Positions 1,389 through 27,692 of a stretch of 30,575 nt of DNA are shown here, one piece after another; within the stretch, counting starts at the first letter, position 1, and each line of letters starts with the position of its first letter. Source of the stretch: a virus (lineage: Duplodnaviria > Heunggongvirae > Uroviricota > Caudoviricetes); IMG/VR virus record IMGVR_UViG_3300032280_000594. One strand, written 5' to 3'. The position numbers were made by a program, and so were the translations under genes. The notes under the pieces were generated by a model that saw only the letters and a program-made list of their open reading frames with translations, had not been told where the DNA came from and searched no databases.

Positions 1389-1397
1389 TTATATATA
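1389..1397 (+). promoter_or_regulatory. putative late promoter variant TTATATATA
   Basis: 4 nt upstream of ATG 1402; one mismatch to recurrent TAATATATA. Confidence 0.45.
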
Positions 1398-1401
1398 TGT
1401 T

Positions 1402-2868
1402 ATGAGAAAAAAGAAGATACTAATAGGTATTACGACATTCAATGAATCGTATCAACCGACCAGTTTTCATTTTAAGGTAGATGAAACTGGAGAAAGAATC
1501 TATGATGATCATAGATTAAATATAGTTCAAGAGAACTTAAAAACCATTTATAATATGATTGATGATGTTAGAATAATGTCAAATATAAACATATTAGACA
1601 TTCAGAGTAATATAAATGTTAAAACTGTTCCTAATCCTACTACTGAAATAATTGGATTATTTGCATCAAAAATGTTTGAATCAATTGGTGTATTTTTTAT
1701 GGCAGGAACTCCAGCGGGTATTATCGCAACAATTGTAGGTAAACTAGTAAGTGCAATAATTACAACAGCTTGTAGAGCAGCATCTGGTGATGCAACAAAT
1801 GATATTCAGAGAGCGGTTAATGATATTAAAAATTGTATGAATGCGATCTTTAATGAAATACAAGTAAGGGTTACACATTGGTTACAAAATATGGAATTAG
1901 AGTGGAATAAAGTTTATCATTGTAATGGTGATTTAGTTCCTGAAATGAAAGGTGATGTAACACTTAGTGATTTAGGTAATTGTGATTGGTTTTTCCCGAA
2001 GAAAGGGGAGTCAGAAGATTATATTACTATTCGTAACTTTCTAACTAAAAAATGTAACTATTTAATTACTCGTGATTTACTTCCAGTTAAATGGAAAATA
2101 AAACAATGTTACAGAGCCTTTCCATCTGATGGGTTTGGAAATTTATTATCTGGATGGAATACTTGTTGGTATAAAGTACGTAATAGAAGTACTTGGGATA
2201 GTTGGTGTTCACATTCTGATTTTCCTAATAGCATACCTAGTAATTTAAGAGGTGATATAGAAGGCCCATTTGAAGACATCGAAAAAGGAAGTAATTATGA
2301 TACAGATGCAAATGGTAATATTTATTATTATCAATGGTGGCCAAAGTGGAATGGTTTAGATGGACCTCGTTATAATTGGGCTAATGAAACACCTCGTTGG
2401 ACGAATTGGTCTGGTAAGAGCGATAGAGTTGAGAAACCAAATCAGGATATAGTATCAGGTACTTCATTCTTAGATTTTATTAAAGATATATTAGATGGAC
2501 ATTATTTTGCAGATACATTGGTATCAGGTTCATTCCCAAATGAACCATCATACTTTTTATGGTATGAAACAAAAAGACCTAATGAGAATGTAAAAATTAT
2601 AAATGATAAAAGAAAATGGACATTACTAAGTAATGAAGCTTGTAAAGACATTGTTTATGATAGTAATAGTATATTCACTTGGGGTAGAGCTTATAGAGGA
2701 ATTAAACTAAATCATTATTACTTAGTTGATGAAAAAGGCGATTATGCACCAAGTGTTTTTTGTGATTGGTTATTCTCGGATGATGGTCATGGTAATATAA
2801 AAAATGAAAATGGTATAGCTGGTAAAATTGATGTTTATATGAATTGGGGATTATCAAAAGTAAATTAA
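1402..2868 (+). CDS. 488 aa Trp/Cys-rich hypothetical protein with internal hydrophobic hairpin
   Basis: Long ORF; hydrophobic segment IGVFFMAGTPAGIIATIVGKLVSAII followed by amphipathic helices; no family recognised. Confidence 0.85.
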   Translation: MRKKKILIGITTFNESYQPTSFHFKVDETGERIYDDHRLNIVQENLKTIYNMIDDVRIMSNINILDIQSNINVKTVPNPTTEIIGLFASKMFESIGVFFMAGTPAGIIATIVGKLVSAIITTACRAASGDATNDIQRAVNDIKNCMNAIFNEIQVRVTHWLQNMELEWNKVYHCNGDLVPEMKGDVTLSDLGNCDWFFPKKGESEDYITIRNFLTKKCNYLITRDLLPVKWKIKQCYRAFPSDGFGNLLSGWNTCWYKVRNRSTWDSWCSHSDFPNSIPSNLRGDIEGPFEDIEKGSNYDTDANGNIYYYQWWPKWNGLDGPRYNWANETPRWTNWSGKSDRVEKPNQDIVSGTSFLDFIKDILDGHYFADTLVSGSFPNEPSYFLWYETKRPNENVKIINDKRKWTLLSNEACKDIVYDSNSIFTWGRAYRGIKLNHYYLVDEKGDYAPSVFCDWLFSDDGHGNIKNENGIAGKIDVYMNWGLSKVN

Positions 2869-2871
2869 ATT

Positions 2872-2900
2872 AAAGTGTCGAATTTATCGACACTTTTTTT
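2872..2900 (+). terminator. intrinsic terminator
   Basis: AAAGTGTCGA/TCGACACTTT 10-bp stem, 5-nt loop, T-tract. Confidence 0.85.
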
Positions 2901-2908
2901 AATATATA
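2900..2908 (+). promoter_or_regulatory. putative late promoter TAATATATA
   Basis: 4 nt upstream of ATG 2913. Confidence 0.65.
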
Positions 2909-2912
2909 AGTT

Positions 2913-3362
2913 ATGAGAACAATTAAATTATTTGAGGATTTTAATACTCCGCAAGATTTCATAAAGGAGTTAAAAGATTTCTGTGAAATGTATTTAGCTT
3001 ATTTAATAGACGAAGGATTTGAAGTAAAAGTCACCGAAGAGAAAGGTGATACTTATGTATTAGATATAGAAAAAGTTTCAGTATATGCTAATTATACAGT
3101 TGGTAATTACGGAGTACGTAATATTGATAATAGTTTTAAATGGGGTGAAGTAGTAGATCATTTTATACCATTTTATCAAATGTTATCAAGAGAATATAAC
3201 TTAGTAAAAAGTGTAAGAGAACCATATGGAACTATAAATCTTAGACAAGAAATGACACTTGGTAGGAGAGTTGGATGGATTTGGAAAAATTATACAGGTG
3301 TAGAAGATTTAGATCCAGATACAAAGATTGATAAAATACAAATACCAATAAAAGCAAAATGA
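2913..3362 (+). CDS. putative virion internal protein, LxDFCExYLAYLxD paralog family
   Basis: Leader MRTIKLFEDFN; core LKDFCEMYLAYLIDEGF...WGEVVDHFIPF shared with 4048 and 7935. Confidence 0.8.
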   Translation: MRTIKLFEDFNTPQDFIKELKDFCEMYLAYLIDEGFEVKVTEEKGDTYVLDIEKVSVYANYTVGNYGVRNIDNSFKWGEVVDHFIPFYQMLSREYNLVKSVREPYGTINLRQEMTLGRRVGWIWKNYTGVEDLDPDTKIDKIQIPIKAK

Positions 3363-4048
3363 CATTAAACGAAACAGATAAATTACGAGTTTTATCTTTC
3401 TTAGAAGATAATGAATTAGATTATACACCTATAGATAATGGTATAATCCGTTTTCACCTTATTGCTGAGGATGGTATGACTTTTTATATAATAAACAACG
3501 AAAATGAGTATTTAGTCACTAAATATAACAAAGATAAAGACCGTCCAGGATCAGTTCCTTATGAAAACTATCAATTTAAGACACTTTCAGAGGTTTTAGA
3601 GCAATTAAAGTTCTATGATAGTAATTTACCTAAGGTATACTGGCAACCTATCTTAGAAACGATAGAAATAGGTTTCGATAAAGATAATCATATAGAAGAT
3701 TGGTATTCATCATTTATTAAGGATGATTTCTATAAAATTGAAGAAGATGATCAATATAAATACTTTTCTTATACAAATGAAGGTTATAAACCAGAATTGA
3801 TTTCACCATTTAATACTTTACACGAAGTAAGTGCATTTAATGATTTACAATTAGAAAAGGTTGATAAGTTATACTTTGAAGTACATCCAATTTCTTGTGT
3901 TAAGAAACGTGAAATGTATTTAGTAAAGTTGTTATGTAATAATGATAACATTTTCAAAGAGTATATAAACTATAAAGTTTATAAAGAAAAAGGATTAAAA
4001 CTAATGTTGAATACTTTATTCAATGATATGGGAAAATATAAATTATAA
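3359..4048 (+). CDS. hypothetical phage protein
   Basis: 229 aa ORF translationally coupled to both neighbours. Confidence 0.8.
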   Translation: MTLNETDKLRVLSFLEDNELDYTPIDNGIIRFHLIAEDGMTFYIINNENEYLVTKYNKDKDRPGSVPYENYQFKTLSEVLEQLKFYDSNLPKVYWQPILETIEIGFDKDNHIEDWYSSFIKDDFYKIEEDDQYKYFSYTNEGYKPELISPFNTLHEVSAFNDLQLEKVDKLYFEVHPISCVKKREMYLVKLLCNNDNIFKEYINYKVYKEKGLKLMLNTLFNDMGKYKL

Positions 4049-4542
4049 TGAAGTATTTAAAAAAATTTGAAATGATTGACTTTAATGACATTTTTAGTTT
4101 AAATGGATCCAGAGCTAAAAGAGAAGAACTTACCGATTTTTGTGAGACATATTTAGCTTACCTTATGGATGATTCTATAAAAGAATTAAAAGTTAGTAAA
4201 CCTCAATTATTACAAACAGAGAAATATGTTTGTTATAATGTAGAAATATACTTTAATAAAAGTGTACACTGGAACCAAATCAAAGATCATTTTCTACCAT
4301 TTCTTCAAATGGTTCAAAAAGAATATGATTTTAGAGAAGATAATATAGGAAGAATGTGTTCAATTGGTTGGAGGATAAAAGATACTTTAACTACAGCTAA
4401 ACAATACACTTTAAAACAATTATTAGATGATAAAATAGAAACTAATTTTACTTTAGAATTGGGATATGGTCATAAAGTATCTATACAAGGTAATGTTGGT
4501 TCAATAAAATTAGATATACTAGAAGAAGTTAGTAAAGACTAA
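4048..4542 (+). CDS. putative virion internal protein, LxDFCExYLAYLxD paralog family
   Basis: Leader MKYLKKFE; LTDFCETYLAYLMDD...WNQIKDHFLPF. Confidence 0.8.
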   Translation: MKYLKKFEMIDFNDIFSLNGSRAKREELTDFCETYLAYLMDDSIKELKVSKPQLLQTEKYVCYNVEIYFNKSVHWNQIKDHFLPFLQMVQKEYDFREDNIGRMCSIGWRIKDTLTTAKQYTLKQLLDDKIETNFTLELGYGHKVSIQGNVGSIKLDILEEVSKD

Positions 4543-5246: not shown

Positions 5247-5255
5247 TAATATATA
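5247..5255 (+). promoter_or_regulatory. putative late promoter TAATATATA
   Basis: 5 nt upstream of ATG 5261. Confidence 0.65.
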
Positions 5256-5260
5256 CTTTT

Positions 5261-5596
5261 ATGAAACACTTAAAACAATTTGAAAGTTATTTTGATAAAG
5301 ATTCTCATTGGACTGAACCAGAAGGAGATGCAATTTTAAAAGCATTTGATGAAGGTACAATTGAAGAAGCAACTAAAGAGGTTGAAGTAAAACCTACATA
5401 TCGTGCAACTGGTGATACTACTGAAACAACATTTAGATTTAAAATTAATGATAGACAAATCTTTGTTCAACTTTTAGAATACCCACATAGAGATCCAATT
5501 ATCGTTATTAAAATTGATGGTTACTTTACAACTATACCAACCGATAGTGAGTATCGTACAGAAATACTAGATAGATGTTTTAAATCTATTGAATAA
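5261..5596 (+). CDS. putative virion internal protein (capsid-targeting-like leader)
   Basis: Leader MKHLKQFES; TAATATATA upstream. Confidence 0.8.
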   Translation: MKHLKQFESYFDKDSHWTEPEGDAILKAFDEGTIEEATKEVEVKPTYRATGDTTETTFRFKINDRQIFVQLLEYPHRDPIIVIKIDGYFTTIPTDSEYRTEILDRCFKSIE

Positions 5597-5623: not shown

Positions 5624-5743
5624 TTATACTAATTCTGCTTTTGCTTTAGCAAGAACAATTTCATTTTGTTTAATTCTTCTAAGTTTTTTAACTTGGTTAG
5701 CTCTGTTCTTTTTAGGTTTCCCTTCTTTTTTTGATTTTGACAT
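5624..5743 (-). CDS. 39 aa highly basic micro-protein
   Basis: Hand-translated: MSKSKKEGKPKKNRANQVKKLRRIKQNEIVLAKAKAELV*; 14/39 K+R; own TAATATATA upstream and terminator downstream. Confidence 0.7.
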   Translation of the reverse strand: MSKSKKEGKPKKNRANQVKKLRRIKQNEIVLAKAKAELV

Positions 5744-5764
5744 AATAAGTGAGTAATTTTCTTT

Positions 5765-5773
5765 TATATATTA
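5765..5773 (-). promoter_or_regulatory. putative late promoter TAATATATA
   Basis: 21 nt upstream of ATG 5743 on minus strand. Confidence 0.6.
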
Positions 5774-5812: not shown

Positions 5813-6247
5813 ATGATACTAAAATGTATAACTCATGACTTTCCAGGTAGAGTTACTTATGGAAAAGAATATAAAGTAATTGAAGAGAAAAAGTGTTCTT
5901 ACTATATAGTTGATGATAACAATAAAGTAGCTACCGTAACCAATAATAAATACTTTATTGATTTGGTAGAATGGAGAGAAAAACAAATAGAAAAAATAAT
6001 AAGAAATAATATGAGTCATTTAGAAGGTTACAATCAGTATTTAGTAAGCAATGCAAACACATTACTTAACTATATACAAGAAAATAATGTTGAATATAAC
6101 ATATCAAGTTTAGTTGAGTTGATAGATAATATAAACAACTCGCTTGGAGATAAGTTAGATTTCTATGCCGAGCAGCTAGATAGGACTATTGCAATAGCAC
6201 AACTCGACTTTGGATACATTCATAGTAGGGAACATTCGGTTCACTAA
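5813..6247 (+). CDS. SH3-like family domain fused to a helical C-terminal domain
   Basis: LKCI...VTYGKEYKV...F...VEWREKQIEKII then continues RNNMSHLEG...; start could be 5804. Confidence 0.75.
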   Translation: MILKCITHDFPGRVTYGKEYKVIEEKKCSYYIVDDNNKVATVTNNKYFIDLVEWREKQIEKIIRNNMSHLEGYNQYLVSNANTLLNYIQENNVEYNISSLVELIDNINNSLGDKLDFYAEQLDRTIAIAQLDFGYIHSREHSVH

Positions 6248-6250
6248 AAG

Positions 6251-6280
6251 ATACCACTCATTTGAGTGGTATTTTTTTTT
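6251..6280 (+). terminator. intrinsic terminator
   Basis: ATACCACTCA/TGAGTGGTAT inverted repeat then T-tract. Confidence 0.85.
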
Positions 6281-6288
6281 AATATATA
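6280..6288 (+). promoter_or_regulatory. putative late promoter TAATATATA
   Basis: 4 nt upstream of ATG 6293. Confidence 0.65.
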
Positions 6289-6292
6289 GTAT

Positions 6293-6748
6293 ATGATTTA
6301 TATAAAACTCTTTGATAATTTTAATCCAAATCACTATGTTGTAAGCTCTGATAAAATAGACCAAAGTTTATCTGATGGAATAGATGCAATACTTGCACCA
6401 ATAACTGATGATGGTTATTTCTTTAACCATTACATTTATGATAAGGATGGAGTACATAATGATAAGAAAAGATTAGAAATAAGTATTTATGTAGAAGGTG
6501 TAAACACATTTACTGAAGAATCAAATATTATTATCGGTTCCGAAATAAAAGAGTCAGTGCTTACACTACTTGATTTTTTAAAAAGAAGAACTGGAAATGA
6601 ACCAAGTGTTTATGTTTGGGATGAGAGTGAGTATCAATTTATTGATATGAAGGATACTGATACACACGGTCTTGAAGATCTTAATGATTTAAGAGAGGAA
6701 TATGCAGAAACTGACTCTATGAAAATAGTTGTCTTATTGGACTCCTAA
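6293..6748 (+). CDS. putative virion internal protein, acidic
   Basis: Leader MIYIKLFDNFN; IDAILAPITDDGY resembles LAYLxDxGF family core. Confidence 0.8.
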   Translation: MIYIKLFDNFNPNHYVVSSDKIDQSLSDGIDAILAPITDDGYFFNHYIYDKDGVHNDKKRLEISIYVEGVNTFTEESNIIIGSEIKESVLTLLDFLKRRTGNEPSVYVWDESEYQFIDMKDTDTHGLEDLNDLREEYAETDSMKIVVLLDS

Positions 6749-6812: not shown

Positions 6813-6821
6813 TAATATATA
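6813..6821 (+). promoter_or_regulatory. putative late promoter TAATATATA
   Basis: 16 nt upstream of ATG 6838. Confidence 0.65.
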
Positions 6822-6837
6822 AAAATAAAAACTTAAT

Positions 6838-7095
6838 ATGAAATACATAAAACTATTTGAAAACTTTATGGATGGAAACAAAGTCCAGTATAAAGCTGTT
6901 AAAAATTCAGAAGGTAAGTGGGAAATTCACATGAAAAATCCTAATCAAAATGAATTTAGTCTACCAACTAGTGGTACTTTATGGACAAATGATGGTAAAT
7001 ACTATAACTCTGAAGGAGATGCCATTAATGTTATTAAAAGTCAAACTAATGAAGATGAGCTTGATGGAGACACCGAATTAGATACAATTGAATGA
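6838..7095 (+). CDS. putative virion internal protein (capsid-targeting-like leader)
   Basis: Leader MKYIKLFENF. Confidence 0.8.
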   Translation: MKYIKLFENFMDGNKVQYKAVKNSEGKWEIHMKNPNQNEFSLPTSGTLWTNDGKYYNSEGDAINVIKSQTNEDELDGDTELDTIE

Positions 7096-7118: not shown

Positions 7119-7403
7119 TTAGACTCCTAAATCTTCTAACTTTTGATTTCTAATTTCTTGTAAAACAAAAGCTTCTATTCCTTCCAACTCAACTAATTCT
7201 TTGGAATGTTTTATTCCGGTTTTATCAATTACAATAGTGTAAACACAATCATCTTTGGTGAAAGATATAAGTTTCACTTCACCATTATTTATACCACCAT
7301 ATCTTGATTTTACTATCTGTTTATTGGATGTTCCACTTAATTTATTGTCAATAAATTCCAATAAAATTGGTGCAGTTTCTTCGGTAAGCCAATTATAAAT
7401 CAT
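7119..7403 (-). CDS. hypothetical protein with C-terminal R-x-x-K-L helix
   Basis: ends QEIRNQKLEDLGV*. Confidence 0.75.
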   Translation of the reverse strand: MIYNWLTEETAPILLEFIDNKLSGTSNKQIVKSRYGGINNGEVKLISFTKDDCVYTIVIDKTGIKHSKELVELEGIEAFVLQEIRNQKLEDLGV

Positions 7404-7920: not shown

Positions 7921-7929
7921 TAATATATA
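7921..7929 (+). promoter_or_regulatory. putative late promoter TAATATATA
   Basis: 5 nt upstream of ATG 7935. Confidence 0.65.
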
Positions 7930-7934
7930 CTAGT

Positions 7935-8414
7935 ATGAGATATTTAAAGAGATTTAATGAATCACAAGATGGTTTTAAAGAACAATTACGAGATTTTTGT
8001 GAGATACATTTGGCTTACTTATTAGATAATGGATTTATGGTTGAGATAAATGAGTTTGATGAACTAGATGGATTTGAATTACTTATTAAAAAAGAGGAAG
8101 AAGATTTACTAAGAAATCCAATATTTACTTGGGAAGAAGTAAAAAATTATATTGGTCCTTTTGTTTTTTATTTAGATAAAGAGTATGAGTTATATAAAGC
8201 ACCTGAGAAAATTGGTAAGTCAGAACCAGGTGATGTTGGTATAGTTCAATCTCAAATTGATTCATTATTTGAGCCATTTAATGTCGAAGAGATCGGTGAT
8301 GATAATTACGAACCATTTTTAGACCAAAAATCTGGATTTACTCCTTCAAGTAAAAAAAGAAGTGATACTAAACTAGAATATATTTTGATATATTCGGTTT
8401 TACAAAACAAATAA
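7935..8414 (+). CDS. putative virion internal protein, LxDFCExYLAYLxD paralog family
   Basis: Leader MRYLKRFNES; LRDFCEIHLAYLLDNGF...FTWEEVKNYIGPF. Confidence 0.8.
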   Translation: MRYLKRFNESQDGFKEQLRDFCEIHLAYLLDNGFMVEINEFDELDGFELLIKKEEEDLLRNPIFTWEEVKNYIGPFVFYLDKEYELYKAPEKIGKSEPGDVGIVQSQIDSLFEPFNVEEIGDDNYEPFLDQKSGFTPSSKKRSDTKLEYILIYSVLQNK

Positions 8415-8435: not shown

Positions 8436-8648
8436 ATGAGTTACGTTATAGATTTTGGTGGTACGATAATGGAAGTTCCCTTAACATTTTTTAAAAATAA
8501 TTTGAATTATAAGATTGTTAAACACGATCTTATAGGTGATACACACTTTATAAATTATGGTGGAATAACTATTAGTGTTCACGATAATATTTTGAAGAAA
8601 GTTCAAATAGATTTAAGAGATTCAAAAATAGATAGTATATTAGAATAA
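8436..8648 (+). CDS. hypothetical protein with C-terminal R-x-x-K-I helix
   Basis: ends IDLRDSKIDSILE*. Confidence 0.75.
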   Translation: MSYVIDFGGTIMEVPLTFFKNNLNYKIVKHDLIGDTHFINYGGITISVHDNILKKVQIDLRDSKIDSILE

Positions 8649-9263: not shown

Positions 9264-9290
9264 AAAAAGAGAACTAATGTTCTCTTTTTT
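9262..9290. terminator. bidirectional intrinsic terminator
   Basis: AAAAAGAGAAC-taat-GTTCTCTTTTT between convergent genes. Confidence 0.85.
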
Positions 9291-9543
9291 ATTTTAATAT
9301 GTCATTAAGTTTCTCGTCTCTTATTTCGGCTTCTGTTTTTAGGTATTTACTTTTGTGTGGACAAAGTCCTGTGCCAAACTTAACTAAGTACCAACCATCA
9401 ACACGATTTTCTGTTTCAATTAAAACATCATAAGTTTCACCTTCGATAAGAGAACAATTTCCCCATACTCTATCAGTAAACTCAATAGATTCTACACAAA
9501 TCATTTTAATAAATCTAGTCGGGTCTTTAGGAGCTTGCATCAT
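9289..9543 (-). CDS. small SH3-like family protein with C-terminal R-x-x-K-L helix
   Basis: MICVES...LIEGETYDV...AEIRDEKLNDILK*. Confidence 0.75.
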   Translation of the reverse strand: MMQAPKDPTRFIKMICVESIEFTDRVWGNCSLIEGETYDVLIETENRVDGWYLVKFGTGLCPHKSKYLKTEAEIRDEKLNDILK

Positions 9544-9584: not shown

Positions 9585-10199
9585 TTATTTACCAAGTAAA
9601 CTTTTTAAAACATTATCTCTTTTTAATGTTTTTAATTCAGTATCAATAGATTCTCTAACTCTTTCATATCCTACTATTGTTTCACTATAAATTTTTTCGT
9701 GATGTTCTAAGATAAATCCCCATAATTGAGAAAGTATTAGTGTACTTGTTTCTGTATTATCGGTATTATATGATACGCTTCCGTTTGTTTGATATGCAGT
9801 ACCGGCAACAGTTTTTATCACAGTAAATGATCCCAAGTCTACCTTATTATTATACGAATATAATCTACTTCTAACCTTTAAAGTATTCGTAGGATTATTT
9901 AGTTCTATCATATATGATTTTCTATCACTAAGACCATAATTTCTTTCGTTATCAATGGTAACTACCCAATCTTCTAGTTTAATAGATTCTAAAACATCTT
10001 TAAGTAAAGAATGGTCCGTATCAAAATCTTCCCATTTTGGAGTTTCATATTTTGGTATAGGTAAACGTAAGAAATCTTTATCGATTTCTTCGATAACTTT
10101 TTTCTTAGTTAGCGTGTAGTTTTTATAAGCAAAGTAAATTACTACTGCAAATAGTATTAAGTTTATTAAGTATATCATTTTAATTTCTAGTGTTATCAT
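9585..10199 (-). CDS. membrane-anchored protein with C-terminal R-x-x-x-L helix
   Basis: N-terminal TM LINLILFAVVIYFAY; ends LKRDNVLKSLLGK*. Confidence 0.8.
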   Translation of the reverse strand: MITLEIKMIYLINLILFAVVIYFAYKNYTLTKKKVIEEIDKDFLRLPIPKYETPKWEDFDTDHSLLKDVLESIKLEDWVVTIDNERNYGLSDRKSYMIELNNPTNTLKVRSRLYSYNNKVDLGSFTVIKTVAGTAYQTNGSVSYNTDNTETSTLILSQLWGFILEHHEKIYSETIVGYERVRESIDTELKTLKRDNVLKSLLGK

Positions 10200-10588
10200 T
10201 TTAATATTTTTCTAATTTTACGATCTCGTTCTTCTACTTTTTTATTTTCTTCTTCTTCTTTTAGAAAATCTTCATATTCTTTTGTGTTATACATGCTCAT
10301 ATCAGTTTCGTGGTTTGAAATACTTGATAATAAAACAAAGATTATTAGTACAATTGGTATTAAAATTGCAGTAAACCAATCCATTTGTTTGTTATTTATA
10401 GAACAAAGACCTATAAATGCTTGTATTTTCAACCATAATATGAATAATTTCTTCCTATCTATGTTAGATAATCTAGTTTTCACTTTATATTTTGCCATTG
10501 ATGAGAATTTTGTAGAAAAATATATTAGTATAGCAATAATAGAAAGTGGAATAAAAAATAGAAAGAACATAAATATGTTACTTACCAT
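10196..10588 (-). CDS. multi-pass membrane protein with C-terminal R-x-x-K-I helix
   Basis: three hydrophobic segments; ends EERDRKIRKILK*. Confidence 0.8.
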   Translation of the reverse strand: MVSNIFMFFLFFIPLSIIAILIYFSTKFSSMAKYKVKTRLSNIDRKKLFILWLKIQAFIGLCSINNKQMDWFTAILIPIVLIIFVLLSSISNHETDMSMYNTKEYEDFLKEEEENKKVEERDRKIRKILK

Positions 10589-12651: not shown

Positions 12652-12657
12652 AATAAC

Positions 12658-12666
12658 TATATATTA
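12658..12666 (-). promoter_or_regulatory. putative late promoter TAATATATA
   Basis: 6 nt upstream of ATG 12651. Confidence 0.65.
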
Positions 12667-15640: not shown

Positions 15641-15645
15641 AAAAC

Positions 15646-15654
15646 TATATATTA
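15646..15654 (-). promoter_or_regulatory. putative late promoter TAATATATA
   Basis: 5 nt upstream of ATG 15640; back-to-back with 15681-15689. Confidence 0.65.
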
Positions 15655-15680: not shown

Positions 15681-15689
15681 TAATATATA
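15681..15689 (+). promoter_or_regulatory. putative late promoter TAATATATA
   Basis: 4 nt upstream of ATG 15694. Confidence 0.65.
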
Positions 15690-15693
15690 TGAT

Positions 15694-17063: not shown

Positions 17064-17852
17064 TCAGTCAAATAACATTTTGTCAACATCGTTATAAAGA
17101 TCTTCTAATGCCATTACTAATTTTTGTAAATCACCTCTATAAAATCCTGAACAGTTTACACAGTTTATCTCTACAATTTTCCAACCATCTGGAGTTAAAC
17201 AGATGTCCATTACAAATGCTGGAGCAACTTTATAAAGATCAACCATTCTCTGAGCGAATTCTAGACCCTCTGGTTCAACATCTTCTGTCCAAACTACATT
17301 TTCATTAAACTTATAGTATGAACTCGTTACAATCTTTCCATCGACGATCCATATTCTTGCCTCTTTATAAATTTTCTTAGGTGATGTAACTTGAATAGTA
17401 ACTGGTGGCATTACACCTAAATACTTTTCTTTAACCATTTGAACAGTGTCCTCCCATTTGATTTTACTATAAAGTTTCCCATTAAACACTTTACTATCTT
17501 TACTTGGTCGAATGAATTTAACTTCATTAGGTTCCCAAACAATTGGATCTGCAATGTCTTTTAGTAAGCTATCATAGTTTAAAAGATTTTTTCTGTAATG
17601 ATCTTTATAGATTTGAAAGTCATGATTTTTTCCATAGAAAGAACCAGGTGTCCATTCCATTTGAGTTGCTAGTCTAGCCGCTCTAACAGAGCCAAATACA
17701 AATACATCTTTGCAGCGATTCATTAGTTTATTGAACTCACCGTTCTTATCGAACCTGAGTATCTCGTACGGTAGTTTAAGACGTTTCATAGTCTCAAATA
17801 TTTTATCATAGTTTTCTTCTCGGAAAACGTTTTCTTGTATTACATAAAACAT
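17064..17852 (-). CDS. ATP-grasp ligase, R2K/DUF4343-like clade
   Basis: FVFGSV, KFIRPSKDSKVFNG, EARIWIVDGKIVTSSYY, AFVMDIC...WKIVEINCVNCSGFY. Confidence 0.8.
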   Translation of the reverse strand: MFYVIQENVFREENYDKIFETMKRLKLPYEILRFDKNGEFNKLMNRCKDVFVFGSVRAARLATQMEWTPGSFYGKNHDFQIYKDHYRKNLLNYDSLLKDIADPIVWEPNEVKFIRPSKDSKVFNGKLYSKIKWEDTVQMVKEKYLGVMPPVTIQVTSPKKIYKEARIWIVDGKIVTSSYYKFNENVVWTEDVEPEGLEFAQRMVDLYKVAPAFVMDICLTPDGWKIVEINCVNCSGFYRGDLQKLVMALEDLYNDVDKMLFD

Positions 17853-20525: not shown

Positions 20526-20550
20526 ACCGTATTTTAATACGGTTTTTTTT
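20524..20550 (+). terminator. intrinsic terminator
   Basis: AAACCGTATT/AATACGGTTT inverted repeat then T-tract. Confidence 0.85.
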
Positions 20551-20557
20551 ATATATA
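20549..20557 (+). promoter_or_regulatory. putative late promoter variant TTATATATA
   Basis: 5 nt upstream of ATG 20563. Confidence 0.5.
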
Positions 20558-20562
20558 TGGTT

Positions 20563-21369
20563 ATGAAATATATTAAACCATATGAAGTTCACAACGAAAG
20601 TTGGAGAAAAACAAAAGCTTATCTTAGAATACCTGCACTTGTTGTAGATATAGCATTAAGTAAATTATTAAATTATGTTCCTAAGTTAAACTCTTTATAT
20701 AAAAGTATGGCTGCAAAGATTGACACTGGTACAAGTTTCAATAGTGGTCCTGGTACAGAAATAAATTGTGCTATTGAAGAAATCAAGTTAGAAGATATAA
20801 AAGATGAGAAAATCAGAAAGTCTTTAAAGTTATCTGGTTTATTCAGTGAGTGGCGCATTTATAAACTTGGTAGATTATCACATGATGGTAAAACACCAAT
20901 CTACTTATCAAAGGATATATTACAAGAAGGTGATGCAGTGCACGGTCAAAGACTATCTGGTGATACTACAACTGAATTCTACGTAGTTGCGGCTAAACAT
21001 ACTGAAGAGCATGATGAAATGTCTAGGGAAAGAAGATCTTCTTATGAGAAGAAAGAGTATAATAGATATAAATCTATGGTCAATAAGGCAGTAGAGAAAG
21101 GTTACTTTTTTAACAGAACTTCAATGGGAGATTTCACTCCTTTATTTCATACACTTGTTAAAAAGAATTATTTAGATTTAGTTAAAAAATGTTTAGAAAG
21201 TAGTGGTATGTCTGTTAGAACTTTAATAGTAAGAAAATTTAATTCGGATGGTGATAGATCTAATAGTCATGGTAGCAAAAACGCATTGGAGTTATCTAGT
21301 ACATTTCCAGAAATGAGAAAGTTGTTAGTTACTTCATTACATGAAGAATGGCAAAAAAATAAAAATTAG
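20563..21369 (+). CDS. putative virion protein with C-terminal ankyrin-like repeats
   Basis: Leader MKYIKPYEVHNES; GDFTPLFHTLVKKNYLDLVKKCLE and KNALELSS..PEMRKLL. Confidence 0.75.
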   Translation: MKYIKPYEVHNESWRKTKAYLRIPALVVDIALSKLLNYVPKLNSLYKSMAAKIDTGTSFNSGPGTEINCAIEEIKLEDIKDEKIRKSLKLSGLFSEWRIYKLGRLSHDGKTPIYLSKDILQEGDAVHGQRLSGDTTTEFYVVAAKHTEEHDEMSRERRSSYEKKEYNRYKSMVNKAVEKGYFFNRTSMGDFTPLFHTLVKKNYLDLVKKCLESSGMSVRTLIVRKFNSDGDRSNSHGSKNALELSSTFPEMRKLLVTSLHEEWQKNKN

Positions 21370-21993: not shown

Positions 21994-22002
21994 TAATATA
22001 TA
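21994..22002 (+). promoter_or_regulatory. putative late promoter TAATATATA
   Basis: 18 nt upstream of ATG 22021. Confidence 0.65.
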
Positions 22003-22020
22003 AAAGAAAGAAATTTTGTA

Positions 22021-22221
22021 ATGAAATATTTAAAAACATTTGAAAGTCATGCTACTTTTAAACCCGGATCTCTAATCGAGTTTCACGTACCAAATACTGG
22101 TAAAACACATACTGGTAGAATTATTACAATAGAGGATGATTTTATAACAGTTATTGATTTAAAAGATGATAAAGAGCTTAGACTACCAAAAGAAGAATTT
22201 GGACCAGCTTATGAAAATTAA
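22021..22221 (+). CDS. putative virion internal protein, SH3/KOW-like
   Basis: Leader MKYLKTFES; FKPGSLIEF...TGRIITIEDDFITV. Confidence 0.75.
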   Translation: MKYLKTFESHATFKPGSLIEFHVPNTGKTHTGRIITIEDDFITVIDLKDDKELRLPKEEFGPAYEN

Positions 22222-22512: not shown

Positions 22513-22521
22513 TAATATATA
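22513..22521 (+). promoter_or_regulatory. putative late promoter TAATATATA
   Basis: 4 nt upstream of ATG 22526. Confidence 0.65.
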
Positions 22522-22525
22522 AAGA

Positions 22526-23332
22526 ATGAAATATATTAAATCATTCAACGAAGAGTTAAGACCTCATATTTATAAAAATGCTGCCGATAAGTTAAGACAA
22601 AATTATGGTCATCACAAAAGAGCTGATAAACTAGCTAGTTATGCTGATGAACTTTATAATAAACAAACACAAGCAAGAATAGAAAATAATCGTCAAAGAT
22701 GTTCTAAGTACGGAGCATTTAAAGGGAAATTAAAAGTTCAAACTCGTGATAACAATTGGCGTGTTACAAATGAAACCATTATAGAAGGTAATTTCTACAT
22801 AAGTCTTTGGTTTGATGATGATTGGTTTAGTGATATGATACGTGAGTCTTGGATTGCCGAAGGTTTTCAATATGCGTGTGCCTTACCATTTGATTTTGAT
22901 ATAATGCCAGCAGATGAAGAAACTCAACAAAAGGTTGATGAAACAGGTTGTGAACAGAATGATGGTTTAATTTATTGTAATAGATTAGAAATGTCTTATA
23001 TAAGTCGTCAACCTGATCAAGATTATATTGTAGATCCTAAAGGGTTTAGTTTTTATGATAGAGATCAAGATACTGCTTTTTACTTTTCTACTAGAGCAGA
23101 TGCTTTAAGATTTAAAAGATTATTTGTTGGTGCAATTTTAGGTGAAAATGATTTCGGTGTAAATCATAATTGGATTAAGCATCCAACTTTAAAAGAACAT
23201 ATAAAGGCTACCTTAGAAAGACAAGATTGTGTAACTGATGATGGTGTTCTTATGATCGATCCAGAAGAAGATCTTATTAAGTTACAAAATTCTGCTAAAA
23301 TAATGTCTTTAAATATTTTGTATAAGGATTAG
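22526..23332 (+). CDS. putative virion internal protein (capsid-targeting-like leader)
   Basis: Leader MKYIKSFNEE; 268 aa, no family recognised. Confidence 0.85.
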   Translation: MKYIKSFNEELRPHIYKNAADKLRQNYGHHKRADKLASYADELYNKQTQARIENNRQRCSKYGAFKGKLKVQTRDNNWRVTNETIIEGNFYISLWFDDDWFSDMIRESWIAEGFQYACALPFDFDIMPADEETQQKVDETGCEQNDGLIYCNRLEMSYISRQPDQDYIVDPKGFSFYDRDQDTAFYFSTRADALRFKRLFVGAILGENDFGVNHNWIKHPTLKEHIKATLERQDCVTDDGVLMIDPEEDLIKLQNSAKIMSLNILYKD

Positions 23333-23350: not shown

Positions 23351-23734
23351 ATGAAAAAAATTATATTACTATTCTTATTACTAAACACAAATTGTTTTTC
23401 TCAACCGAGTTCAGACGTGTCCTACACAGGATACACTGAGAGAGATGAAATTATACTTTCTATAAATCCGGTAAATAATTGTGAACTTCGTTATGACTTT
23501 TATCCAAATTATGATGCTTACTATGATAGAAAAGAAGAAGTTTATCTTGTCTTTGAAAAAGGTACTTGGACAAAAGTAGACTACATAAATCCAAACTATC
23601 GTGGCTATTCTATTTATAATAATACACATTATGTCATTAAGGATTATGATGGTGATGATATAACTGAAATGTATCCAATTCATAAGAAATTTTTCCCATA
23701 TGTAACTAGGAAAACATTATTAAAAGAATGGTAA
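23351..23734 (+). CDS. secreted Tyr-rich hypothetical protein
   Basis: Signal peptide MKKIILLFLLLNTNCFS|Q. Confidence 0.8.
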   Translation: MKKIILLFLLLNTNCFSQPSSDVSYTGYTERDEIILSINPVNNCELRYDFYPNYDAYYDRKEEVYLVFEKGTWTKVDYINPNYRGYSIYNNTHYVIKDYDGDDITEMYPIHKKFFPYVTRKTLLKEW

Positions 23735-24003
23735 GAGATAAAGTATATAAAGAATTTAATGTAGGTGATGAAGTTTATACACATAAGGTTACTTGGAAAG
23801 CAATTACTGCCAATAAACCTTATATCGTATTAGCTTGTTATAAACCAGATGGTTATGTAGATGATTATCCTGTTAGAGTTATTGACATTAAAACTGATAA
23901 AGGTTTTATATCTAGATATGCAACTGACAAATTTCACAAAACTGATACACAGATTAGACAAGATAAGATAAATTCAATACTCAATGACAATACGACAATA
24001 TAA
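23728..24003 (+). CDS. small SH3-like family protein with R-x-x-K-I helix
   Basis: FNVGDEVY...ITANKPYIV...TQIRQDKINSILND. Confidence 0.8.
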   Translation: MVRDKVYKEFNVGDEVYTHKVTWKAITANKPYIVLACYKPDGYVDDYPVRVIDIKTDKGFISRYATDKFHKTDTQIRQDKINSILNDNTTI

Positions 24004-24316
24004 AAAGAAATACTTTATTTGTAAAGATGATTTCGGAAAAATGATTTACTTAGGTGATACTGTTGAGGTATGGATGCCATGTGAAACAAAACCATATCAA
24101 TCTTGTGTTTATTGGAATAGATTAGATGGTGCTTTCATTGATGGACATCCTGCTCATGTTAAAATGGGTCATTCTAGTCATAGAAGTTTAAACGCATTTT
24201 TTATGAGAAATAGTCCACCTGTTCCTATTTATGATTCATTTGATGATGATGCTGTACCTACTTGGCATCAAGGTTATGTTAAGAAAGTAAAATCATTTTA
24301 TGAAGGAGAAGATTAA
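23984..24316 (+). CDS. YopX-like phage protein
   Basis: KDDFGKMIYLGDTVEV resembles YopX KDKNGKEIYEGDIV motif. Confidence 0.55.
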   Translation: MTIRQYKKKYFICKDDFGKMIYLGDTVEVWMPCETKPYQSCVYWNRLDGAFIDGHPAHVKMGHSSHRSLNAFFMRNSPPVPIYDSFDDDAVPTWHQGYVKKVKSFYEGED

Positions 24317-24701
24317 GCAAATTTTTACTGAATTAGTTGAGTCTATTGAGGTTAATGGTTATTATAGGAATGTTAGAAAGATAGAGGTTAATACTGAACG
24401 TGATAGTATTTATATCTTCTTTACTGACTTTAGAAATAATGATGAGTCTGCACCAGAAATAGATTTAGGTGATAAAGTACATAATAAATGGTATTTTAGA
24501 CTTTATAATAAAATTATTGAAGAATATACCAATTCTGATGAGGATTATTTGGCAATGATTGATAATTATACCACTATAAATTTTTACACTGACTGGTTCA
24601 AAAGATTAGAATATGACGTAAATACTTTATATTTACGAGTAAATCTAACAGAACTTACTGGATTTATTAGAGATAAAAAGATTTCAAAATTATTAGAATA
24701 A
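24300..24701 (+). CDS. hypothetical protein with C-terminal R-x-x-K-I helix
   Basis: ends GFIRDKKISKLLE*. Confidence 0.8.
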   Translation: MKEKIKQIFTELVESIEVNGYYRNVRKIEVNTERDSIYIFFTDFRNNDESAPEIDLGDKVHNKWYFRLYNKIIEEYTNSDEDYLAMIDNYTTINFYTDWFKRLEYDVNTLYLRVNLTELTGFIRDKKISKLLE

Positions 24702-24706: not shown

Positions 24707-24715
24707 TTATATATA
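24707..24715 (+). promoter_or_regulatory. putative late promoter variant TTATATATA
   Basis: upstream of 24741. Confidence 0.45.
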
Positions 24716-24740
24716 CTTATATAAAAAATAAAATAATAAG

Positions 24741-25091
24741 ATGAAACTTAAAAAGTTTAACAATTTCTTAAATGAAAATTTAGAAGGACCACAAGATGCG
24801 GTGGTTGATACTCCTACAGGTGAAATAACTTTATACAGACTAACTTCTCACTCAGTTGTTGATTTAAACGATCCAGGAGAGTTTTATGTAAATTCACCAG
24901 AATCTGTTGATCCAAAATTATTAGATAAACCAGGTCAAGATTTATTCTTAATTACCGTTACTACTGATGCTTCAAACATTGATACTGAAGGTACTGAAAA
25001 AGAAGCTGCAAAACAAGATAATGATGCTATTGTAATGGTTAAAGATTCGACTAAATGTGAGATTGTTACTATAGTTCCTTACACTAAATAA
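24741..25091 (+). CDS. putative virion internal protein, possibly degenerate ADP-ribosyltransferase-like fold
   Basis: Leader MKLKKFNNFLNE; ITLYR...PGEFY...LFLITV...NID. Confidence 0.75.
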   Translation: MKLKKFNNFLNENLEGPQDAVVDTPTGEITLYRLTSHSVVDLNDPGEFYVNSPESVDPKLLDKPGQDLFLITVTTDASNIDTEGTEKEAAKQDNDAIVMVKDSTKCEIVTIVPYTK

Positions 25092-25120
25092 ACTATTTTA
25101 CTTTACAAACTATAATTGGT

Positions 25121-26020
25121 ATGATAGATAAAATAGAACTATTTGGAAAACAAATAGAATTAAAGACACATAACTGTCACCTATTCGATCAAGAAGCACA
25201 ACCCGTTGAAGAACCTTATATAAACTTTTATATAAGAACTAAGTTCTGTAACGCGAAATGTGCTTTTTGTACTTATGCGGATGATGCAAGTAAATACTCA
25301 GCTAAGAAACTACAAGAAGTATTTGAAGAAATTTCTCCTAAAATTAAAATACGAAAGGTTGCCATTTCAGGTGGTGAACCTACTTTATATTGGGATAACT
25401 TCGTAAATATAGTAGAACTTGCTAAAAAGTATGCACCTGATGCTGAGTTAAGTATGAATACTGATGGATTTCGTTGGAAACAATTATTTGAAGATCCAAT
25501 TTATAAAGAGTTTGATTATATTCAACTATCTCGTCACCATTATGATGATGCTATAAATGATGAAATCTTTAAATGTAAAACTCCTACTTTTGATGAGATT
25601 AAATGGGCCGCTGGACTTCAAACACATCCACATCAAATTCAATTTAGATGTAACTTGATTAAAGGTTATGTTGATAACAAGGATGAGGTATTTAATTTTT
25701 TAAACTGGGCTAACTCAGTTGATATAAATGATATAGGTTTAGTTTCTTTAATGCCAATCAATGATTATTCAAAAGAAAATTATATTTACTTTCATATTAA
25801 AGAATTGATTGGAGATAATTTCTTTTTAACAAAAGAATGGAAAAGACATGGTGGAGGTTGTGAGTGTTTTAACTATGTTTATATGCCACATGATGAAACA
25901 TTTAGAAGACCTATGAAAGTATATCACAAGAATACTTTTGCACCGTCAGACATCAAAGAAACACTTGTATTTGATGGACAGAATGTAAGATTAGGATTTG
26001 ACGGAGAGATAATATACTAA
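25121..26020 (+). CDS. radical SAM enzyme, substrate unknown
   Basis: CNAKCAFC (CxxxCxxC), ISGGEP, MNTDG; no SPASM-type Cys cluster beyond CxC. Confidence 0.9.
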   Translation: MIDKIELFGKQIELKTHNCHLFDQEAQPVEEPYINFYIRTKFCNAKCAFCTYADDASKYSAKKLQEVFEEISPKIKIRKVAISGGEPTLYWDNFVNIVELAKKYAPDAELSMNTDGFRWKQLFEDPIYKEFDYIQLSRHHYDDAINDEIFKCKTPTFDEIKWAAGLQTHPHQIQFRCNLIKGYVDNKDEVFNFLNWANSVDINDIGLVSLMPINDYSKENYIYFHIKELIGDNFFLTKEWKRHGGGCECFNYVYMPHDETFRRPMKVYHKNTFAPSDIKETLVFDGQNVRLGFDGEIIY

Positions 26021-26044
26021 AAAAGAGACTTTAAAGTCTCTTTT
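26021..26044. terminator. bidirectional intrinsic terminator
   Basis: perfect 24-nt palindrome AAAAGAGACTTTAAAGTCTCTTTT between convergent genes. Confidence 0.85.
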
Positions 26045-26049
26045 ATTTT

Positions 26050-26337
26050 TTAACAACTACTTCTTTGGTAACCACCACCGCCACCACAACCATCATTATG
26101 ATACTGGTAAGTTGGTGCAGGTTGAGGTGCCGGAGCAGGTCTTACTGGTGCAGCTGGTGCAACATAAGGTTCTATATCATGTTCAACACAAAATTCCATA
26201 TAAGTTGCTTTTTGTACGTCTCCAGTTTTAACTAAGTCATAAACTGCAGCATTAAATTTTTCTTCAAGTGTTGTACCTTGGTATCTTTTGCTATAAAAAG
26301 CATAAAGTTTATTTAATAAGTCTATTTCTTGTGACAT
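26050..26337 (-). CDS. small protein with Pro/Ala linker and Gly/Cys-rich tail
   Basis: ...APAAPVRPAPAPQPAPTYQYHNDGCGGGGGYQRSSC*. Confidence 0.8.
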   Translation of the reverse strand: MSQEIDLLNKLYAFYSKRYQGTTLEEKFNAAVYDLVKTGDVQKATYMEFCVEHDIEPYVAPAAPVRPAPAPQPAPTYQYHNDGCGGGGGYQRSSC

Positions 26338-26357
26338 TATTTTTAATTATTTTTATC

Positions 26358-26672
26358 TTACCAATCACATGCGAATCTTATTGTATCTAGATCGTAATCT
26401 ACTAACAATTTTAGAACTGCTGGATAGTATTTTATTTTGTTTTTCCAGTAATCACCTGCATTACCATCAATTACCTTTTGACACCAGTCTTTTGAATATC
26501 TACTTGATATTGTACCTTCTTCCCACATATCCATGTTGTCAAAGAATTCATTACCATCAAAATCAAAATCATTATTATCGATGAATTCGAAAAAGTCGGA
26601 CGCACTAGCAACCGGTTCAATAAATACTTTTTTATCAACGGACTCGTTTATTTTATCTGTGAATTTTTTCAT
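26358..26672 (-). CDS. putative virion internal protein, acidic
   Basis: Leader MKKFTDKINES. Confidence 0.8.
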   Translation of the reverse strand: MKKFTDKINESVDKKVFIEPVASASDFFEFIDNNDFDFDGNEFFDNMDMWEEGTISSRYSKDWCQKVIDGNAGDYWKNKIKYYPAVLKLLVDYDLDTIRFACDW

Positions 26673-26675
26673 GAC

Positions 26676-27692
26676 TTATATATTAAAATTATTTTTTATA
26701 ATTTCAACACATTCTTCAAATCTTTCTCGCCAAGTTCCACCAACTTCTACAAAATGACAACCTCTATTTACTAATTCATTTTTAATGACTTCATAATGTT
26801 GTTGTCTTTCTTCTAAGAAACTTCTTGTACCATCTTGAACAGCATCACAATCCGGTTTCAAAATAATATATAAATCATACTTTTTCTTCTCAGAAAGTTT
26901 ATTTAAAAACCATTCGGTTTCTTTTTGATGTTCTTCATTAGGACAATACATATCTAAGAATAGATAGGTTGTAATGTCTTCTGTATCACAGAATAATAAT
27001 TTATTTGATCTTTTAATCATCCAATCCTCTAATGTTTGTCTTCCTTCTGAAATAGGAATAAAATCTTCAACACCTACTTTATTACCATTTCCTTCATAAA
27101 CTATTCTACCATATTCATCAACAAAATTGGTTTGAAACCAATTTGCTAACTCTTTAGTCATTGTAGATTTACCAACAGATTCTGGTCCCATTATTGCAAT
27201 TCTTTTTACAAAAAATGGTTTTAATTCATCTGAAATAAAATCCCATTTTTCAAAAGGATTTTCTCTAACTGCAGTTCCCGATACTGGAAAATTAGTTCTT
27301 TCCTTATCTACTAAGAAATGTTCTACACCTAAGTGTTCTGCAAATCCATCACCGTAATCTTCTGATGTAAATACAACATCTAGCTCATCAACTAAATTAT
27401 AAATTTGTGGAACCCAGTAAGAATAGAATTCTTCTAGTGATTCACATTCATAATCATGTTGAGGTAGTCCGGTATCATCAAACTGATATACGATTACATT
27501 AGGGTTGTTTTGGTACGTTTTCTTTAGTCCGAGGTATCTTACGTCACCTGGAATATTTTGTGTCTTATTATGTGATATAATGACGTGAACGTGTTCACAA
27601 TTCTCAATTGCGGTATCAATAAGATACTTATGTCCCAAGTGGAAAGGTGCAAACTTGCCTAAAACTAATCCACTTTTAAACTTTTTTTCCAT
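26676..27692 (-). CDS. nadR: NadR-type bifunctional NMN adenylyltransferase / ribosylnicotinamide kinase (no HTH)
   Basis: GKFAPFHLGH (HxGH nucleotidyltransferase), VFTSEDYG, PVSGTAVR, Walker A GPESVGKST, EYGR, LFCDT, QDGTR. Confidence 0.92.
   Translation of the reverse strand: MEKKFKSGLVLGKFAPFHLGHKYLIDTAIENCEHVHVIISHNKTQNIPGDVRYLGLKKTYQNNPNVIVYQFDDTGLPQHDYECESLEEFYSYWVPQIYNLVDELDVVFTSEDYGDGFAEHLGVEHFLVDKERTNFPVSGTAVRENPFEKWDFISDELKPFFVKRIAIMGPESVGKSTMTKELANWFQTNFVDEYGRIVYEGNGNKVGVEDFIPISEGRQTLEDWMIKRSNKLLFCDTEDITTYLFLDMYCPNEEHQKETEWFLNKLSEKKKYDLYIILKPDCDAVQDGTRSFLEERQQHYEVIKNELVNRGCHFVEVGGTWRERFEECVEIIKNNFNI
26677..26685 (-). promoter_or_regulatory. putative late promoter TAATATATA embedded in last codons of nadR
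   Basis: TTT AAT ATA TAA (F-N-I-stop) contains the motif; 4 nt upstream of ATG 26672. Confidence 0.6.

Follow-up and report, generated by a model that had tools for sequence, protein, structure and literature searches.

The 30,575-nucleotide (nt) stretch of IMG/VR virus record IMGVR_UViG_3300032280_000594 analysed here (the window) has a G+C content of 28%, promoters of the Bacteroidota host type, and about 53 genes of at least 50 amino acids (aa). Across it, a short A/T-only motif, TAATATATA or TTATATATA, repeatedly stands just upstream of genes whose products begin with a shared N-terminal leader peptide (Table 1). An earlier reading of this DNA from its letters (the original prediction) held that about 15 unrelated proteins carry a late promoter and a leader resembling the capsid-targeting sequence (CTS) of phage T4, and that this portable module makes them virion cargo injected at infection. 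All 15 starts and leaders that it listed are present in the sequence, and the present analysis considers what the motif and the leader are likely to do.

On the two strands together TAATATATA occurs 16 times, about five-fold more often than in 100 dinucleotide shuffles (3.17 ± 2.0, with 16 reached by none of the 100), which confirms the enrichment over a shuffled background that had been proposed as a check. Four copies of TTATATATA bring the total to 20. A same-strand ATG follows 16 of the 20 within 4-28 nt: 11 genes start 4-6 nt after their copy, and five starts (6838, 22021, 24741, that of the fibre-like gene at 30359, and that of a 39-aa open reading frame (ORF) at 5743) come 16-28 nt after theirs. 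The other four copies (9076 on the minus strand; 12987, 13343, and 26864 on the plus strand) are intragenic with no gene behind them. The fibre-like gene had been named as a further carrier, and TAATATATA is indeed found 28 nt before it, a spacing typical of structural genes. At 2900 and 6280 a terminator hairpin directly abuts the motif, and thus each gene there is a self-contained unit of terminator, promoter, and gene. A second upstream signal, the Bacteroidota housekeeping -7 element TAnnTTTG (mostly TATCTTTG), precedes 14 window genes. A scan for sigma-70-type promoters gave 125 sites vs 136 expected and hence no enrichment, and the T4 octamer TATAAATA, with 3 and 12 copies on the two window strands, is not enriched upstream of genes.

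The leader comes in two forms. The short form, M-K/R-Y/H-I/L-K-x-F/Y-E/N-(E/S), was scored with a position-specific scoring matrix (PSSM) trained on another phage (G002, introduced below), the threshold being the 99.9th percentile of 2,735 internal-Met contexts. Ten of the 53 window genes exceed it once the start of one is corrected to 20563, and nine of them stand behind the motif; the tenth, 4048, is operon-internal and, as had been noted, the only leader gene without a motif. The long form is found in four genes (12651 and 26672 on the minus strand, 15694, and 24741), three of which fit the T4 pattern K-x-Y/F-x-x-F-I/L-x-E, the fourth (26672) carrying a variant that is seen twice in G002. 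Leaders are present in 13 of the 15 motif-bearing genes of at least 50 aa vs one of the 38 others (Fisher p = 1.7e-9). The two untagged motif genes are the fibre-like gene and 1402, and the latter, originally listed as a weak member, keeps its late motif but loses its place among the leader genes. The proteins are also less unrelated than was first proposed, as they include two groups of paralogues: 2913, 4048, and 7935 (29-41% identity), and 12651 and 15694 (35% identity). The 15 listed genes thereby reduce to 12 families, and the 14 leader-bearing ones to 11, with no detectable similarity between the 12 families beyond the leader. None of the tagged window proteins scored above threshold against Pfam or PHROGs.

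Table 1. Genes and features of the window, followed by the protease-scaffold fusions of related phages. Spacing is the distance from motif to ATG; an empty cell means that no value is given.
Feature	Position	Strand	Promoter and spacing	Leader and remarks
488-aa gene MRKKKILIGITTFNES	1389-2868	+	TTATATATA at 1389-1397, 4 nt	no convincing leader, PSSM -11.8
149-aa gene MRTIKLFEDFN	2900-3362	+	hairpin 2872-2896, TAATATATA at 2900-2908, 4 nt	PSSM 11.4; paralogue of 4048, 7935
164-aa gene MKYLKKFEMID	4048-4542	+	no motif; operon-internal, ATG overlaps upstream stop	PSSM 14.8
111-aa gene MKHLKQFESY	5247-5596	+	TAATATATA, 5 nt	PSSM 17.4
39-aa very basic ORF MSKSKKEGKPKK...	5624-5773	-	TAATATATA at 5765-5773, 21 nt	no leader
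151-aa gene MIYIKLFDNFN	6280-6748	+	hairpin 6246-6277 abuts TAATATATA, 4 nt	PSSM 11.4
85-aa gene MKYIKLFENF	6813-7095	+	TAATATATA, 16-nt A-rich leader	PSSM 22.5
159-aa gene MRYLKRFNES	7921-8414	+	TAATATATA, 5 nt	PSSM 22.8; paralogue of 2913, 4048
394-aa gene MVNKYYEFILEK	11467-12666	-	TAATATATA at 12658-12666, 6 nt	T4-like long leader; paralogue of 15694
438-aa basic protein MRYIITYEE	14324-15654	-	TAATATATA at 15646-15654, 5 nt	PSSM 6.6; divergent from 15694 cassette
446-aa gene MRIKKYSDFLLES	15681-17034	+	TAATATATA, 4 nt	T4-like long leader
268-aa basic protein MKYIKPYEVHNES	20549-21369	+	hairpin, TTATATATA, 5 nt	PSSM 16.0; real start 20563, not 20557
66-aa gene MKYLKTFESH	21994-22221	+	TAATATATA, 18-nt leader	PSSM 22.2
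268-aa gene MKYIKSFNEEL	22513-23332	+	TAATATATA, 4 nt	
116-aa gene MKLKKFNNFLNEN	24707-25091	+	TTATATATA, 25-nt leader	long leader
104-aa gene MKKFTDKINES	26358-26685	-	TAATATATA at 26677-26685, 4 nt	variant of long leader
Fibre-like repeat protein, runs off window	30322-30574	+	TAATATATA, 28-nt A-rich leader	no leader peptide
C-terminal-helix protein	7119-7403	-		
C-terminal-helix protein	8436-8648			
C-terminal-helix protein	9289-9543	-		
C-terminal-helix protein	10196-10588	-		
C-terminal-helix protein	13191-13445			
C-terminal-helix protein	23728-24003			
C-terminal-helix protein	24300-24701			
R2K-clade ATP-grasp protein	17064-17852	-	no late motif	among tagged cassettes; no leader
Radical-SAM protein	25121-26020		no late motif	among tagged cassettes; no leader
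Operon: TonB-dependent receptor (Plug + barrel), small multi-pass membrane protein, NadR-like protein (cytidylyltransferase + AAA_28)	26676-30255	-	host-type TAnnTTTG promoter	
Protease-scaffold fusion (G002)	L136: 13393-15663			
Protease-scaffold fusion	L161: 3374-5413	-		
Protease-scaffold fusion	L162: 2692-4935			
Protease-scaffold fusion	L163: 2714-4852			

There is little doubt that the leader is a signal at the level of the peptide. Its codons track genome usage (K5 is AAG 18 times and AAA 16 times, L4 CTT 15 and TTA 13, F7 TTT 24 and TTC 11, H3 CAT 10 and CAC 10), and the window uses both AGT and TCA for Ser, both ATT and ATA for Ile, and both TAT and TAC for Tyr. Leaders are also found free of a promoter, in 4048 and in a four-gene array of G002, and the presence of a leader on 4048 without its own late motif indicates that the leader does not depend on the promoter. 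Conversely, the 4-nt spacing also occurs on leader-free genes of G002, such as a DNA methyltransferase. These data bear directly on the idea that the conserved start reflects an RNA- or translation-level need of leaderless late mRNAs, which draws on the A/U-rich composition of the leader and on the position of most tagged genes 4-6 nt after the promoter, where the first codons would serve as the ribosome-binding region. However, synonymous codons vary as they do genome-wide, substitutions are conservative in amino acids (I/L, F/Y, K/R, and Ser from both codon families), tagged genes also occur with 16-25-nt leaders and inside operons, and many genes at 4-nt spacing are leader-free; the codon data go most of the way to refuting this idea, which is now very improbable. 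A related candidate, in which the codons for MKYIK would reproduce the core of the promoter within the gene, was rejected because the codons differ between genes.

Conservation of the leader can be followed within two families. In the 268-aa family of gene 22526, 19 homologues with overall identities of 41-97% all begin with an unaltered MKYIKSFNEEL, and an IMG/VR homologue at 25% identity begins with the near-unchanged MKYLKHFNEEL. The 446-aa family of gene 15694 has 618 homologues; among the 120 listed, which span 33-97% identity, nearly all keep the leader, and almost all N-termini read M-x-I/L-N/K-K-Y/F-x-x-F-L/I-x-E-S, usually with a second L-L-L-E-S/A about eight residues after the first; two or three tandem [FL][LI]xE[SA] sites are present in this family. 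In AlphaFold2 models the 446-aa protein has a mean predicted local distance difference test score (pLDDT) of 83 with residues 1-12 below 50, and the 268-aa protein of gene 22526 has a mean pLDDT of 77 with residues 1-12 in coil and 1-7 below 50. The best-conserved segment of each protein thus lies outside its fold, which is the signature of a linear signal. As to the body of the 446-aa protein, Foldseek against PDB returned nothing at E ≤ 1e-3 and only weak GNAT-fold rows, and AlphaFold DB clusters returned uncharacterised proteins and weak N-acetyltransferase rows.

The shared 5' end might also have been inherited or copied, either through paralogy or as a cassette of promoter and first codons spread by recombination. 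Two paralogue groups among the tagged genes, cassettes bounded by terminator hairpin and promoter, and the clustering of tagged genes in islands would all fit such a history, but it sits poorly with 12 families that have no similarity beyond the leader, with leader DNA that differs at synonymous sites, and with a leader that stays constant in proteins whose identity has otherwise fallen to 25-41%. Recombination may account for the spread of the leader but not for its retention, and we consider shared ancestry of the 5' end a highly unlikely explanation.

The module proves to be as portable as the original prediction proposed: an exact TAATATATA-N4-ATGAAATAT is found in at least 120 IMG/VR stretches, on contigs of up to 597 kb, and about two thirds of these matches continue MKY[IL]Kx[FY][EN]. 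Head genes, sigma factor, and structural promoters were read in four near-complete relatives of 240-600 kb (G001-G004), of which G002 (IMGVR_UViG_3300049793_000366; 508 kb, 33% G+C) was fetched whole. Although only 8.6% of the G002 genome is intergenic, a same-strand start follows within 40 nt for 139 of its 189 motif copies. The extended consensus of these copies is TTTTAATATATA, with no -35 element. Fifty-eight G002 genes pass the short-leader PSSM, and the tag goes with the motif (odds ratio 9.8, p = 5e-15). Motif-to-start distances are bimodal, with a 17-37-nt class (A-rich leaders) made up of large structural genes and a 4-7-nt class that comprises most tagged genes and some untagged ones. 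Because of the known geometry of -10 elements, transcripts of the 4-7-nt class should be leaderless or near-leaderless.

Gene content in the relatives makes it very probable that the [T/A]-[A/T]-ATATATA motif is a phage late promoter. The Gp23-family major capsid gene has the motif about 30 nt upstream in three of the four relatives (G001, G002, and G004) and a one-base variant, GAATATATA, in G003; the protease-scaffold genes are preceded by the motif or its AAATATATA/CAATATATA variant, and the G002 portal gene by AAATATATA. The G002 genes that have the motif but no leader include PHROG matches to tail sheath, portal, large terminase, head decoration, head closure, maturation protease, major head protein, endolysins, and DNA methyltransferase, whereas G002 genes behind TAnnTTTG match DNA/RNA ligases, tRNA enzymes, NUDIX, PNK, and phosphatases. 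In addition, a gp55-like sigma factor, which the original prediction suggested looking for, is present in all four relatives as a phrog_234 match (E = 4e-8 to 9e-7, ORFs of about 121-131 aa). A search of the relatives with the T4 gp55 sequence by itself gave nothing before this profile found the sigma, and phrog_12791 had no match there. A motif that precedes capsid, portal, protease, sheath, and terminase genes, together with a gp55-like sigma in every relative, argues for a late promoter, as first proposed, and host RNA polymerase with the gp55-like phage sigma probably reads it. The lateness of the tagged genes is in turn deduced from the promoter that they have in common with the structural genes of the relatives.

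The relatives also carry a T4-type head module. All four encode a Gp23-family major capsid protein, and the gp21-type protease that was likewise to be looked for is found as a Pfam Peptidase_S77 match in three and as a homologous fusion protein in the fourth. Among nine further motif-bearing IMG/VR fragments, four have a Gp23 gene, and the rest are 24-83% complete by CheckV estimate. The gene order in the relatives is portal, protease-scaffold, capsid. The capsid proteins closest to theirs in the databases belong to the 634-735-kb huge phages of Al-Shayeb et al. (2020), followed by those of Lak phages (30%) and Tenacibaculum phage PTm1 (27% identical). The protease is fused to the scaffold in a single protein of 680-757 aa, which contains 9-11 tandem 14-residue repeats in perfect register, NIxYSEY[IL]AENLDK, followed by an extended acidic tract and a conserved domain at the C-terminus. 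This fusion has more than 4,000 metagenome homologues, on contigs of up to 770 kb. The G002 record is classed as a provirus in IMG/VR, and an identical protease-scaffold protein lies on a 711,805-bp Joint Genome Institute contig; the record is thus perhaps a trimmed piece of a phage genome of about 712 kb. PTm1 has the same order of portal, protease-scaffold, and capsid, and no TAATATATA or TTATATATA in the 17 kb examined, and therefore is no stand-in for proteomics. Two PTm1 genes (L159, 1212-1901 on the minus strand and 16595-16816) start with (M/L)-R/K-K-L-Y-x-x-I-S-E-N-[LF]-[VI]-x-E, which may be a CTS-like leader of its own.

The T4 CTS reads MKTYQEFIAE, in which residues 4 and 7 serve targeting and 8 and 10 processing; gp21 cuts after L/I-x-E and itself carries LIE-9, and CTS proteins are cut once and retained, the internal proteins being highly basic (PMC9026906, PMC3012670). 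The N-terminus of T4 gp22 is MLKEQLIAEA. The core of the scaffold repeat, Y-S-E-Y-I/L-A-E-N, is close to the YQEFIAE of the CTS, and the long leaders (K-Y-S-D-F-L-L-E-S, and the T4-like MLKYLEFITEA and MNTISYQEYVMEA of G002) fit both, with two aromatics three residues apart as in T4 targeting and an I/L and then Glu as in T4 processing. These T4 determinants are present in three window genes, in the 120 listed 446-aa homologues, and in MLKYLEFITEA of G002. The resemblance to the T4 CTS in the original prediction therefore holds for the long leaders, at the T4 targeting and processing positions, and extends to the phages' own scaffold repeat. A matrix built from the scaffold repeats of G001, G003, and G004 and tested on G002 recovered 8 of 741 N-termini vs 26 of 7,890 internal windows (p = 0.007), a modest excess that concerns the long form only. 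What remains of the T4 pattern in the short form is Y/L at positions 3-4, F/Y at position 7, and E at 8-9. As for cleavage, 9-17 genes per position have a candidate site [LIFVMY]-x-E-[SNAE] with its Glu at residues 8-12, vs 4.7 expected (about three-fold), and such sites are associated with the late motif (odds ratio 4.1, p = 1.6e-7); the N-termini of the relatives' proteases have [LI]-x-E-[SN] at residues 15-20. Complex prediction for the G002 protease with scaffold repeats and the first 60 residues of the 446-aa protein, run without controls, scored 0.00 and speaks neither for nor against binding.

We lean towards the view that the leader is a T4-style head-targeting propeptide that is subsequently cleaved off, and by analogy with T4 the tagged proteins are probably head cargo. 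A 9-13-residue N-terminal peptide held outside the folded protein would imitate one Y-S-E-Y-I/L-A-E-N unit of the scaffold, and through this mimicry the tagged protein would co-assemble into the prohead core; the gp21-type protease would then cut after the leader Glu, and the mature protein would stay in the head and enter the cell with the DNA. We infer scaffold binding, cleavage, packaging, and ejection, as well as any effector role, and a function of the tagged proteins in anti-defence or host takeover would be speculation beyond that.

Several observations weigh against a head-targeting propeptide. In the short form the residue three before Glu is often Lys, Thr, Ser, or Gln and not Leu/Ile, a hydrophobic residue being required there by T4 gp21, and this form, the dominant one, scores nothing against the scaffold-repeat matrix. 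The isoelectric point (pI) is 4.1-5.7 in 13 of the 15 window proteins, and in G002 its median is 5.0 for tagged vs 5.7 for untagged proteins (p = 9e-4), whereas T4 internal proteins are highly basic. In phi38:1, a cultured podovirus, the 446-aa family has a homologue whose N-terminus is loosely similar and which is not annotated as structural. Tagged proteins on other contigs have NUDIX, NadR-like kinase, GNAT, and NFACT-R domains, and these could be injected effectors or equally cytoplasmic enzymes. The structural-gene promoters, the sigma, and the head module are seen in relatives only, and just three of the 53 window proteins have homologues in G002. Finally, the cargo would amount to about 8% or more of all genes. 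In cultivated megaphage G, 104 of 668 ORFs were detected in particles (PMC12484599), by comparison with which so large a cargo set is plausible in size.

Some of these points would suit a leader that is a linear motif for another late partner, such as a chaperone or assembly factor, a cytoplasmic proteolytic timer (a degron that the prohead-type or some other protease would cut), or another late structure. Peptide-level conservation, lack of structure, and portability are compatible with any linear motif, the tagged proteins are acidic and in part enzyme-like, and the short form has no match to the scaffold repeat. This alternative is nevertheless rather unlikely, as the long leaders reproduce the T4 residues that were shown experimentally to act in targeting and gp21 processing, the system travels with the T4-type protease-scaffold and major capsid protein, and its promoter is common to head genes. 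A second alternative agrees that the leader takes proteins into the prohead core and regards them as auxiliary components, like T4 gp67 and gp68, that are degraded and expelled at maturation and not delivered. Its strengths are the likeness of the leader to the scaffold repeat, the two or three tandem L-x-E sites of several families, and an acidity that resembles the acidic tails of T4 gp67 and the scaffold. Well-folded globular bodies of 12 different families, enzyme domains (NUDIX, kinase, GNAT) among the relatives' tagged proteins, and the T4 precedent, in which CTS proteins are cut once and retained, speak against such a fate, which we judge improbable.

If the leader is indeed a head-targeting propeptide, Bacteroidota megaphages might have a generalised delivery system, in which the late promoter and a scaffold-mimic peptide lead to prohead loading, trimming by the fused protease-scaffold, and injection of 60-100 or more mostly acidic proteins per virion; this extension is tentative, and we would hesitate to favour it. 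As to the window itself, the low proportion of proteins with G002 homologues indicates that it is accessory DNA and that G002 is a moderately distant relative. Megablast against phage records gave no match to the window, and scans of IMG/VR and metagenome contigs with the 446-aa protein gave no copy of it or just short relatives. The window is best explained as an accessory-gene island of an uncultured, distantly T4-like megaphage with a Bacteroidota host.

Comparison with known systems places this one closest to the T4 CTS, which is found on IPI, IPII, IPIII, and Alt and is removed by gp21 (Mullaney & Black 1996; PMC9026906, PMC3012670). Both are extreme N-terminal peptides of 9-13 residues on otherwise unrelated proteins, with two aromatics three residues apart, I/L, and Glu (here in the long form), and both go with late expression and with gp23-like, gp21-like, and scaffold genes (here in the relatives); moreover, the T-even ip genes are also polymorphic, with the CTS alone conserved. 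The differences are considerable. The dominant consensus here is MKY[IL]KxF[EN], often with no Leu/Ile three before Glu; dozens of proteins per genome are tagged, not three or four; they are acidic, whereas T4 internal proteins are small, highly basic, and DNA-associated; most tagged genes are their own near-leaderless late cassette; and the protease is fused to a scaffold that has a tandem CTS-like repeat. The T4 late promoter (TATAAATA, read with the gp55 sigma) is likewise an A/T-only -10-type element without a -35 that precedes head, tail, terminase, and lysis genes, and a gp55-family protein accompanies the element described here in all four relatives. However, the sequence here is TAATATATA, very often 4-6 nt from the ATG, and the host belongs to the Bacteroidota, with TAnnTTTG promoters of its own.

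Propeptides of phiKZ-like phages (SPN3US gp245 and phiKZ gp175) are also N-terminal, are thought to target ejection proteins into the prohead, and are cut after Glu of a three-residue motif by a gp21-related protease, in heads of about 50 protein species, but they are mostly longer than 100 residues, have the motif A/S/G-x-E, and include no short tag shared across families (PMC5694885). Those phages belong to a different lineage from the phages considered here. Searches of the available literature returned no account of a promoter-plus-leader system of this kind. T4-type hyperplastic regions contain promoter-early stem-loop (PeSL) cassettes, in which a hairpin and a promoter flank each small accessory gene, within islands that change rapidly. 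Unlike the cassettes in the window, PeSL cassettes have early promoters and no shared coding leader.

If the leaders are head-targeting propeptides, the signature would give a list of virion cargo from sequence only for uncultured huge phages, and much of their dark-matter gene content would be proteins that act in the first seconds of infection. The CTS principle, hitherto described for a few T-even proteins, would extend to a very large environmental clade, and mimicry of the scaffold's own repeat suggests how a CTS may work. Under generalised delivery the injected proteome would be far larger and more diverse than in any studied phage. The leader would also be a ready-made tag for packaging foreign proteins, and it is short enough for a direct test. 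The late promoter consensus and the split between near-leaderless and leadered genes are useful for annotating these genomes.

Further features of the window lie beside the tagged genes. The 1402 product is Trp/Cys-rich with a hydrophobic stretch at about residues 85-125, and the ESM Atlas clusters closest to it consist of fungal hypothetical proteins (score 0.95), which is a lead only, as is the weak OmpA-like ESM Atlas match of the 15640 product (minus strand). The 39-aa basic ORF (5624-5743, minus strand), which stands behind an otherwise orphan late motif, may encode a small late DNA-binding peptide. A C-terminal helix of the form R-x-x-K-[LI]-x-x-[LI]-[LGK] is shared by at least seven small proteins, all of them without leader and late motif, and it is absent from the 14 leader-tagged proteins; the two tags are mutually exclusive in the window. 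As regards the NadR-like protein of the receptor operon, one IMG/VR relative has a leader-tagged AAA_28 protein instead.

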